A DNA stretch of 63,443 bases, counting the filler, from Reticulomyxa filosa (lineage: Eukaryota; Protista; Foraminifera): the NCBI GenBank assembly GCA_000512085.1. It is 14 parts of 14 records of this genome, joined end to end, with 100 filler letters (N's around TTAATTAATTAA, not from the genome) between each part and the next. Parts side by side here need not be neighbours in the genome. Positions count along the whole stretch, not along the records: positions 60,071 to 62,295 come from ASPP01028219.1; 13 more parts are not named here. The stretch is one strand, 5' to 3'. This document shows, piece after piece, positions 60,071-62,295 of the stretch. The translations under genes and the position numbers were made by a program. Every line of letters begins with the position of its first letter. Position 1 is the first letter of the stretch. The notes beneath the pieces are model-generated. The model saw only the letters and a list, made by a program, of their open reading frames with translations, was not told the DNA's origin and searched no databases.

Positions 60071-60289
60071 AATGATGACCCCTTCAATTTCCTCTTTCTT
60101 TTTATAAACCCTGTTGTCAATGATATATTATCCGCCAGTTGATTGAAAAATTCCTTGATAGTCTTTGATATGAAATCTATGTTTCTCATTTATAAGTTCT
60201 CTTATTAGTTAGTTACCTAAGAGAACTTATATTATTTGCCTGATATAGGCCATTCTAATTCCTTTCTTCTCCTTAACTTGACGCGTATG
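60071..60289 (-). mobile_element. IS4-family (IS231-like) left end and transposase N-terminus, truncated by contig end
   Basis: Terminal CATACGCGTCAAGTTAAGG (60289-60271). ATG at 60189 gives MRNIDFISKTIKEFFNQLADNISLTTGFIKRKRKLKGSS, like Wolbachia/Rickettsiales IS4 transposases (EFFN..AD.IS...GFIKRKRKL.GSS). Confidence 0.8.
60191..60231. promoter_or_regulatory. Perfect 14-bp inverted repeat immediately upstream of the IS4 transposase start
   Basis: TATAAGTTCTCTTA-N13-TAAGAGAACTTATA. Confidence 0.7.
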
Positions 60290-60370
60290 CAGCAAAAAAC
60301 TGTCTCATGTTGGATTTGCTTGGTTCCAGAAGATGGGTTAACGCAACACGTGGGAAATTTTGATAGGTTC

Positions 60371-61006
60371 TCAACCGTTTGCCGCTTTCAAAATTTCATT
60401 TATATCTGCATTGCCTAACAATGCTTTTTTGATAATTTCTCTTAAAAAGACTGTATCGCCGGATTCAGCAGAATCAAAATCTGTATTTTCGTATTTTTCT
60501 TGATCAAAATCGGGATCAGTGGTTGCTTCAATTTCCTTTATCCACCACCGAACAATTTTTAGATATACGTCAAAGATAGTACATATATCTTCAACCTTGA
60601 TTGGATGCTTATTATCATCCGCAATTATTGCGAACAACTCATGACCAATATCATTCCTCAAAATATATAAGCGCTCTATTTCATTAAATTCTTCTGCACT
60701 TATCGCGTCAAAATCCCGAAACAATTTTAATGCAGCTCTAAAAGCTTCATTCCCATGCTGGCCATCTTCTCCTTTACCATGTTCTTTGATTAGCTTTTTG
60801 AATTTATCTCCTCGCCGATAGACAATATCGCCTTCTTTAAATTCAATATGACTACAGAAGAATCCTTCGACCTGACCCAAAGTATATTTCTTGAATCTTT
60901 CAAAAAGCATCAACAGCAATCCAGCAAGTATAAGTTGCTCACGAATCTCTGCGCCATCTCCCCCGATGATTCTATTAAGTTTTTTGAATTCGTAGATTTG
61001 AGTCAT
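60371..61006 (-). CDS. Bacterial hypothetical protein, putative HEPN-superfamily RNase (Rx4H)
   Basis: Intronless 211-aa helical-looking ORF with LRNDIGHE (R-N-x3-H) and an upstream FE helix; KIVRWWIKEIE..TDPDFD tail. Confidence 0.6.
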   Translation of the reverse strand: MTQIYEFKKLNRIIGGDGAEIREQLILAGLLLMLFERFKKYTLGQVEGFFCSHIEFKEGDIVYRRGDKFKKLIKEHGKGEDGQHGNEAFRAALKLFRDFDAISAEEFNEIERLYILRNDIGHELFAIIADDNKHPIKVEDICTIFDVYLKIVRWWIKEIEATTDPDFDQEKYENTDFDSAESGDTVFLREIIKKALLGNADINEILKAANG

Positions 61007-61034
61007 AATTCGCTTTAAATTTATTCATGAGTTA

Positions 61035-61872
61035 GGTAGTGTGAACAAAATTTACAAGATTAAGAAGAAGAGGTAACTTCCTTGTATTCAACCAAAGGAG
61101 TTACCCTATGAAACATCACATAAATTCTTATACATGGGAACAGATATTATTATTTTTAAGGCAAGAAAAAAGAATCCATACAAAAGATAGCATCTCTCTA
61201 AGAAAGTTTATCGAGGGTATATGGTATATAGTGCGAAGTGGCTGTCAATGGAGGCTACTACCTGATTGTTATGGCGACTGGAGAGCAGTTCATCGTCGGT
61301 TTAAGAGATGGTCAGATATAGGTATTTGGATGCGATTGATGCAATATGTTGCTGATCCAGATAAAGAAGCAATGATAGTAGATGGAACAATTGTCAGGTC
61401 TCATGCCTGTAGTAGCGGTTATGGCAAGAATAGCCGGGACAACCAGGCTTTAGGCCGCAGTAGAGGAGGATTCAGTACAAAGATCCACACAGTTGTTGAT
61501 GCATTGGGTAACCCATTAAAATTTATCCTGACTGCGGGACAAAGAAACGAAATAACTCAGGCAGAACGATTAATAGGGGTTAACTCCGGCACTACTGTTA
61601 TTGCTGATAAGGGATACGATAGTAATGCTTTTATTGATTTCCTGCAAAGCAAAAAGTGCGCCTATGTTATACTAGGCAGAAAAAACCGTAAAGACAGGCG
61701 TATTATGATCAGCACTTATATAAAGAGCGACATCTGATAGAGTCTTTCTTTGGTAAAATAAAGCATTTCAGGCGCATATTTTCAAGATTTGATAAGACTG
61801 CTCTAACTTTCTTAAGCTTCTTACACTTTGTAGTGGCTCTTTTATGGTTACGTTAATTTTGTTCACACAACC
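61035..61872 (+). mobile_element. Complete IS5-family (IS427-like) insertion sequence, 838 bp, TA target duplication
   Basis: IRL GGTAGTGTGAACAAAATT and IRR (reverse complement) GGTTGTGTGAACAAAATT, each flanked by TA. Confidence 0.92.
61108..61856 (+). CDS. IS5-family DDE transposase with a 1-bp frameshift near 61702
   Basis: SGCQWRLLP..YG.W..V..RF.RW, IVDGTIVRSH, LGRSRGGFSTKIH, VIADKGYDS. The shifted frame continues YDQHLYKERHLIESFFGKIKHFRRIFSRFDK...WLR*. RBS AAGGAG at 61095-61100. Confidence 0.9.
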
Positions 61873-61874
61873 TA

Positions 61875-62110
61875 GGATTAGAATTACAATAAAACATTTG
61901 CACAAAGTTTAAAATAATTGACGCGTATAGAGCATTTTGGATACGAATCCATACATCACGGAACTCCAACATTTCTTCTCTATCACAGGGTATTTTGAAT
62001 ATATCAGTTAATGTTCTGCAAATTGCTATGTTTCTTACCACAAGGAAAATTTTCTCTACTACTTGCACTAGTTGTTTTTTCCGTAGTTATTCAATATTGT
62101 TATCAGGCAT
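61875..62110 (-). pseudogene. Bacterial small ORF, disrupted by an in-frame TAA (62087-62089) and the IS5 insertion
   Basis: ATG 62110 gives MPDNNIE*LRKKQLVQVVEKIFLVVRNIAICR...DVWIRIQNALYASIILNFVQMFYCNSNP, then the IS; it starts 2 bp after the upstream stop. Confidence 0.55.
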
Positions 62111-62112
62111 GA

Positions 62113-62295
62113 TTATTTGGTTTTAGGATATAATATAAATTTATAATATACTTCTTCAAGTATATTCAGCTCATTCTCATCTATATCTTGAAATATTTTT
62201 ATTTTCGCCCGTTGTGAGAATTTTCCCTGATTTTGTTCAAGGAAGCGAATTAATAATGATATTTTAGGTTTTATATCTAAATTATTTAATTGTAC
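62113..62295 (-). CDS. C-terminus of a probable long Fic-family protein (5' truncated)
   Basis: ISLLIRFLEQNQGKFSQRAKIKIFQDIDENELNILEEVY resembles the LLxRFLEQNxGKLSKRAR..EF..L...E...IE tail of large Fic proteins. The Fic motif itself is off-contig. Confidence 0.6.
   Translation of the reverse strand, partial: VQLNNLDIKPKISLLIRFLEQNQGKFSQRAKIKIFQDIDENELNILEEVYYKFILYPKTK

Follow-up and report, generated by a model that had tools for sequence, protein, structure and literature searches.

A predicted HEPN ribonuclease, probably working alone, encoded between insertion sequences on a bacterial contig of the Reticulomyxa filosa assembly

The window analysed here is a stretch of 63,443 nucleotides from the genome assembly of the foraminiferan Reticulomyxa filosa (GCA_000512085.1), in which 14 contigs are chained by N-TTAATTAATTAA-N linkers. 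One of them (positions 60071-62295) is a linker-bounded bacterial contig of 2,225 bp with a GC content of 35% that lies between eukaryotic contigs. Its genes are intron-free and bacterial, insertion sequence (IS) elements are present, and P0001 is recorded on a contig of 2,225 nt. Because 60071-62295 is a separate contig, the rest of the window is unlinked to it. Re-reading of the sequence confirmed three co-oriented minus-strand frames on this contig: an upstream frame that ends at a stop codon (62115-62113), a middle open reading frame (ORF) that begins with an ATG at 62110, and a HEPN-like gene of 211 codons. The original prediction took these to be a Fic-like gene end, a small ORF and a HEPN gene that together formed one defence or toxin-antitoxin operon being dismantled by two IS elements. 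Both elements are indeed present, one at 61035-61872 and the other with its end at 60289.

The 211-aa gene (60371-61006, minus strand, ATG at the 61006 end) is intact, as originally described, and encodes RNDIGH at residues 117-122. Among 604 candidates, 138 were close homologues of its product, and a family profile search returned 708 representatives (E<=0.001, 50% clustering). Invariant columns, determined from 68 of the 120 close homologues listed, include E36, R117, N118, G121, H122, R153, W154, W155 and E158. In a wider alignment of 108 homologues with a mean identity of 25%, H122 was retained in 107/107, R117 in 106/107, E36 in 105/107 and N118 in 101/107, and W154 and W155, a family-specific WW motif, were conserved in more than 90%. 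The HEPN superfamily is marked by an RX4-6H motif, a polar residue following the R and an acidic residue upstream (PMC3710099; this and the other papers are cited from the portions of their text available), and all three marks are present in the 211-aa family. Position 40 (compare the Ex3[KR] type of acidic motif) is K in the window protein but variable across the family. Long-term purifying selection was evident between the window gene and its homologue at locus L016, with nonsynonymous divergence (dN) of 0.12 against synonymous divergence (dS) of 1.83. A 259-nt stretch of the HEPN gene occurs in one RNA run, but this does not demonstrate transcription. P0123, a homologue at 46% identity, is recorded under the name of a Rickettsiella endosymbiont; the family has thus reached another intracellular bacterial lineage. 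P0148 (375 aa, from a cluster of 3) carries the family domain twice in tandem within a single chain, both motif regions being altered, and this duplication fits the expectation of a two-copy active site.

The predicted model of the 211-aa protein (pLDDT 90.8, pTM 0.86) is a helical bundle with a beta-hairpin at residues 53-64 and additional C-terminal helices. In a VIA structure comparison, ranks 1-3 were all HEPN-type, namely 1wwp (Z 7.2, root-mean-square deviation 2.9, 103 residues aligned), 8xdj (Z 6.5) and 1jog (Z 6.4), and the top 17 also held 1ylm, 4pqz, 7ae2, 5yep and 2hsb; for the untitled rows the HEPN identity is in part our assumption. Foldseek and PADLOC, both proposed earlier as checks, gave less: the first six Foldseek rows were all Csm6 (E 0.17-0.77), and the window protein matched no HEPN family in PADLOC or NCBIfam at E<=0.1, nor in Pfam at E<=1. 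Sub-threshold Pfam matches over 108 family members fell mostly on HEPN families, led by DUF4145 (19), Cthe2314 (10), HepT-like (9) and RiboL-PSP (8). When 108 and 99 relatives were compared with the libraries, only scattered weak matches appeared and no named HEPN family reached its curated cut-off; PDC-S05, Csm6, Cas13 and MtlR were each considered as the identity of the family and not accepted, their matches being weak and scattered. A sequence search of solved structures returned only Med22 (E 0.23), the nearest Atlas clusters are unnamed with up to 1,070 members, and no description of the family was found in the literature, where a text search cannot locate a family by sequence. From the homologues, their conservation, the model, the fold matches, the weak HEPN-clan Pfam matches and the dN/dS comparison, the 211-aa protein very probably belongs to the HEPN superfamily. 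The earlier HEPN assignment thus holds, with R and H conserved and HEPN-type structures in the top VIA rows, at modest scores.

To see in what company the family occurs, we fetched 58 loci (15 genome, 43 metagenome and 0 viral) and 2 plasmid loci reached via a distant member; 35/60 loci had more than 1.2 kb upstream. Neither the Fic tail nor a homologue of the middle ORF was found in any of the 58 loci, and an AbiU2 gene stood beside the family gene in 0/60 when searched with small home-built profiles. The Fic-ORF-HEPN trio therefore does not form a conserved operon. The family gene was lower in GC than its locus in 24/24 close and 19/20 distant loci, and its distribution was patchy (1/401 Rickettsiales genomes, and 2/301 genomes in another set). 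Chosen neighbour proteins were scanned with Pfam (114 and 132 proteins) and PADLOC (91 proteins), and the company varied: AbiJ and a serine recombinase at L017, Shedu at L047, a type IIG restriction-modification system at L008, HEC-09 and a resolvase at L026, HerA at L003, PDC-S11 and a relaxase at L004, ParE at L005, and other toxin-antitoxin genes at L001, L009 and L046, with integrases and IS elements also among the neighbours. Of the neighbourhood expected earlier, then, proximity to defence genes was seen for some homologues and co-occurrence with Fic for none. No nucleotidyltransferase antitoxin gene was found on the contig or among the 114 and 132 scanned neighbours; one nucleotidyltransferase gene lies three genes upstream of the family gene, at L092 only. 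For the most part the family gene is found on its own, frequently close to mobile or defence genes, and it is passed on horizontally as one unit of low GC. A single Rickettsiales copy was found (L001:6995-7633); it is broken by a TAG and lies between recO and parC, beside a BrnA-like antitoxin gene. At L004 (1388-9707) a mobile island runs in the order NikA and relaxase, a metallo-beta-lactamase-fold gene, an RX4H gene, the family gene, T5orf172 and PDC-S11.

The middle ORF (61875-62110, minus strand) meets an in-frame TAA at codon 8 (62089-62087), which the original prediction missed, and so was broken independently of the IS. With the IS excised in silico, the frame ends in NSNPNS-TGA (TGA at 61027-61025), 18 nt before the ATG at 61006, much as had been reported; it comprises 81 codons with the internal stop, no RX4-6H motif and no C-terminal half, and the IS5 element alone would remove only its last two codons. 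No Pfam family matched it at E<=1. Its Atlas features (0.94, 206/256 shared) led to clusters with HEPN_AbiU2 (PF18734) on 11-26% of members. Compared with a 17-protein AbiU2 profile from Rickettsiales it ranked fourth, with 3/500 shuffles above it, and with a 27-protein profile (drawn from 30 loci, 3 with stops or short sequences being left out) it scored 11.4 bits, which 0/1000 shuffles reached, aligning collinearly from the N-terminus over the first 60-70 residues. The likeness to the N-terminal half of AbiU2 noticed at the outset is therefore upheld by the Atlas and the 27-protein profile. A word search found no longer homologue, viral contigs held none and plasmids gave one chance match, and in Rickettsiales weak scattered matches occurred in 27/400 genomes (best E 0.0015). 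Since it has no C-terminal catalytic half, the middle ORF probably represents, from its translation, what is left of the 5' part of a dead AbiU2-type gene; it differs from PF18734 members in its nonsense codon and its missing catalytic motif. An old fusion of the remnant with the HEPN gene (in frame, 264 nt, two stops) was considered and rejected: the AbiU2 alignment stops before the IS, the close homologues share the start methionine of the HEPN gene, and the frame match of the remnant with the HEPN ATG was judged a one-in-three coincidence. As the alignment ends before the IS, it gives no proof that both IS flanks were one locus.

The upstream frame (62113-62295, minus strand) is the 3' end of a gene with a Fic C-terminal tail of about 45 aa. 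By tblastn the tail matched the C-termini of plasmid Fic proteins at 36-49% identity (17 records), and it is 73% identical over 45 aa to P0298, the closest true Fic relative, a 645-aa Fic-ankyrin protein with an intact HPFEDGNGR and C-terminal ankyrin repeats. In contrast to true Fic/Doc proteins (PF02661), the protein identical to the frame has no Fic domain: the 60 residues at 62116-62295 match residues 525-584 of P0297 with 100% identity. P0297, a 590-aa protein labelled Reticulomyxa filosa and located on a 7,087-nt contig, has a DnaJ domain, proline-rich repeats directly before the tail and neither a Fic domain nor an HPFxxGNGR motif. Any Fic-domain region of the window gene would lie off the contig, and the lack of one in P0297 argues against it. 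The window contig starts at the last residues of the proline repeat, and it therefore most likely holds a second copy or variant of the P0297-type gene; the last residues of P0297 differ from those of the window. Most likely, then, the upstream frame is such a copy or variant of a J-domain and proline-repeat gene and no Fic enzyme, so the predicted Fic tail stands and the Fic enzyme is unsupported. P0297 itself may be a eukaryotic gene model; it looks like a shuffled bacterial effector-type gene with a grafted Fic tail, apparently in two variants.

Two IS elements enclose the HEPN gene. The IS5-family element (61035-61872, plus strand) has terminal repeats matching at 17/18 and a TA on both sides, the latter being weak proof that the flanks were once joined. 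Its transposase starts at 61108 and exceeds the cut-off of NF033580 (192.6 bits); it lies in two frames with a break near 61701 and matches a single-ORF Legionella transposase in both, and the copy in run X1 has no such break. The spacer at 61007-61032 (minus strand) is the 5' region of the HEPN gene; had the IS flanks once been joined, it would also hold the final codons of the remnant and its TGA. A hybrid promoter at the IS end (61045-61018) was rejected, as 9 promoter-like sites were found against 9.1 expected by chance. Downstream of the HEPN gene, the left end of a probable IS4-family element with its first 39 transposase codons (60071-60289, minus strand) runs off the contig; this end agrees at 17/18 positions with the end of a Rickettsia plasmid element, the ORF of which matches NF033592 below the cut-off. 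A palindromic stretch at 60190-60230 (TAAGTTCTCTTA ... TAAGAGAACTTA) stands immediately upstream of the IS4 transposase start and is possibly regulatory. The 3' flank of the HEPN gene (60290-60384) is identical in run X1, exactly to 60290, after which unrelated sequence follows, an apparent empty site. A contig of run X4 spans the 5' part of the HEPN gene and IS5 (60739-61160), showing 7 differences and a single gap over 423 nt. This bridge indicates that the HEPN-IS5 junction is genuine and predates the split from the 98% identical relative, so IS5 is not a fresh strain-specific insertion. No run bridges IS5 to the remnant, and 0/8 runs covered more than 41 bases of the middle ORF or the tail, which at a depth of 2-4 carries no evidential weight. 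The contig is an IS-rich graveyard of decaying genes.

Several known systems offer comparisons. HepS, from the Salmonella prophage Gifsy-1, is a self-inhibited single-domain HEPN protein that has no partners and cuts tRNAs upon binding a phage tail protein (PMC13043305). The 211-aa protein resembles it in its single HEPN domain, its R-x4-H spacing and the lack of a conserved partner or antitoxin gene, and HepS can serve as the model for a solo, self-inhibited HEPN protein. However, the family profile found no match in the LT2 Gifsy-1 record, where hepS itself was not located, and its search of PDB sequences (E<=10), among which the presence of a HepS entry is unconfirmed, yielded no HEPN chain; and HepS is often carried on prophages, whereas the 211-aa family was not found in the viral collections searched. 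The HepT/MntA type VII toxins (8xdj, 7ae2, 5yep) share RX4H and match the fold at Z 5.4-6.5 over about 105 residues, but at 10-13% identity; the 211-aa protein is about 70 residues longer, with the beta-hairpin and WW helices, and its family has a nucleotidyltransferase gene nearby only at L092. Table 1 of the 2013 survey lists a HEPN family, Bxe_C0808, with a conserved motif, no Pfam name and the remark 'in operon with AbiU2' (PMC3710099). The 211-aa family, likened by description only, may be Bxe_C0808: it too is a HEPN family without a Pfam name, and the window layout suggests an AbiU2 operon, although an AbiU2-like remnant is all that the window holds and the 60 loci have no AbiU2. In our literature search the term Bxe_C0808 occurred only in PMC3710099. 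DefensePredictor reports four HEPN-bearing systems (PMC13092281), and the supplements on these and on HepS could name the 211-aa family.

With moderate confidence, we favour the reading that a separate contig, probably from a symbiont, carries a solo predicted HEPN ribonuclease (RNase), likely an abortive-infection toxin, beside a Fic-type end and a middle ORF that are independent broken fragments. These two fragments probably arrived independently, and the three-gene defence cassette is probably not real. Two copies of the 211-aa protein would bring their R117-x4-H122 motifs together to form a single active site, as HEPN biology suggests (PMC3710099, PMC13043305). By analogy with HepS, the protein might be self-inhibited without an adjoining antitoxin gene until a phage product or stress acts on it; once triggered it would cleave host RNA, tRNA being the usual target, and arrest the cell. 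The beta-hairpin and the WW and acidic C-terminal helices may act as sensor or lock elements.

A number of observations weigh against this reading. The fold scores are modest, with no Z>=8 in VIA and no Foldseek E<=0.001, and scores of this size are within chance reach of generic helical bundles. Copies at several loci (L016, L027, L031) lie among housekeeping genes only; the defence company of the loci was counted without a control set and is suggestive, with no claim of enrichment. The family was absent from the viral contigs, phage records and close plasmid matches searched, and the lone copy among 401 Rickettsiales genomes carries a stop. The window copy has L95, where W is found in 64/67 close homologues, in 95/107 of the wider set and in the near-identical alleles of runs X1 and X2, and 8/11 differences to the X1 and X2 alleles are non-silent, near the neutral expectation; the sites are few and the contigs of low depth. 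L95 and the stopped Rickettsiaceae copy hint, at the level of sequence, at relaxed selection, and the window HEPN copy may be losing function. The assignment of the contig to a bacterial host is likewise putative. Finally, a second RX4H gene lies directly upstream of the family gene in 5/40 loci, four of these genes being from one family, so 'alone' is not universal (the 40 loci are those left after removing 7 duplicates and loci with less than 500 nt upstream; L032 was counted from the flanking-peptide search described below, as the upstream-gene pick there chose another frame).

That last point leads to a different view, in which the family forms a two-HEPN module with an exchangeable upstream HEPN partner, as a hetero-oligomer or as toxin and inhibitor, the partner here being the decayed AbiU2-type gene. 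When 1,013 flanking peptides from family loci were compared all against all, a sole shared neighbour was left once locus duplicates and widespread families (ABC ATPase, dehydrogenase, resolvase, integrase) had been set aside: a protein of 150-173 aa with an invariant RNxLxH and FG..Q..E and no match in Pfam or NCBIfam. Its gene is directly upstream of the family gene in four loci (L002:6506-6955; L013:1548-2021; L025:1621-2139; L032:5287-5745), separated from it by a few nt in L002 and L025, and it occurs in both main clades of the family tree in a quick version; at L004 a different RX4H gene abuts the family gene. The AbiU2 operon recorded for Bxe_C0808 and the 18 nt between the window remnant and the HEPN ATG would suit such a module as well. 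However, 35/40 loci have no such neighbour, the partner occurs without the family gene in 4/4 plasmid loci opened of the 7 found (Sinorhizobium, Pantoea and Tenderia, beside transposases in two cases), and the window remnant shows no likeness to the RNxLxH family. No strong family match was found in the 30 AbiU2 loci, just as no AbiU2 was found in the 60 family loci; HEPN genes accumulate in defence islands regardless, and the remnant is not joined to the IS in any run. The partner and the 211-aa family are related only faintly (hhalign probability 18%). We regard this module as unlikely, and as slightly less likely still its fuller form, in which the family would be the constant half of a two-HEPN defence module whose partner (the RNxLxH type, the L004 type or AbiU2) makes a mixed active site or restrains the RNase in lieu of a conventional antitoxin, the pair in an intracellular symbiont having decayed.

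As unlikely as the two-HEPN module, in our estimate, is that the HEPN fold here serves no defence role and belongs to an RNA-processing protein, a stress regulator, an MtlR-like binder or a selfish passenger. The weak MtlR likeness, the copies among housekeeping genes and the absence of finds in phages would agree with this, but the catalytic motif is almost invariant, and the patchy distribution, low GC and changing neighbours suit conflict genes better than core regulators. The single Fic, small ORF and HEPN operon under IS dismantling has co-orientation and tight spacing in its favour, and Fic/Doc genes have been reported near PrrC/RloC, another HEPN family (PMC3710099). Yet the only protein identical to the tail has no Fic domain, co-occurrence is 0/58, the middle ORF was already dead by its nonsense codon and the IS5 junction is common to a 98% relative; this operon is largely refuted already, and we give it very little probability. 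No greater is the chance of an assembly artefact or chimeric contig. The contig is short, one end lying within an IS and the other at a repeat, and what looks like a second copy of its right end has different last residues; against an artefact, the independent X4 contig joins the HEPN gene to IS5 and X1 matches the downstream flank, which leaves only the IS5-to-remnant side without a bridge.

As for the favoured solo RNase, the window locus is an ordinary IS-ridden remnant, and the by-product of its study is a well-defined, testable family. This 211-aa family is real, widespread and unnamed in Pfam, NCBIfam and PADLOC, and is predicted to be an RNase that probably works alone; having no profile in these libraries, it escapes current defence annotation. 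HEPN proteins that defend the cell on their own are already known, and the family, if active, would therefore be one more such system, with a trigger that is probably new. If the HEPN-HEPN partnership were true instead, it would be a new control mode for an RNase toxin.

The contig probably comes from a host-associated bacterium, a symbiont. A Rickettsiales (Midichloriaceae) bacterium was co-sequenced with the Reticulomyxa filosa host (PMC10847448), and we infer that the contig belongs to it. The sole plasmid match of the IS4 end, a Rickettsia element, is in favour of this origin; against it, the best plasmid match of IS5 is from Legionella (54%), the HEPN family occurs in 1/401 Rickettsiales genomes, and near-identical pieces were found in wastewater, sludge and root metagenomes. 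The contig is an example of bacterial genes carrying a eukaryote's name in protein databases. Other segments of the window hold fragmented eukaryotic frames that, from their translations and not from a profile scan, we take to be WD40-, HECT- and COPI-like. The 24-kb eukaryotic contig at 17912-41992 carries a very large gene on the minus strand, split into many pieces, which presumably, as its translation suggests, ends with a HECT-like ubiquitin ligase domain.

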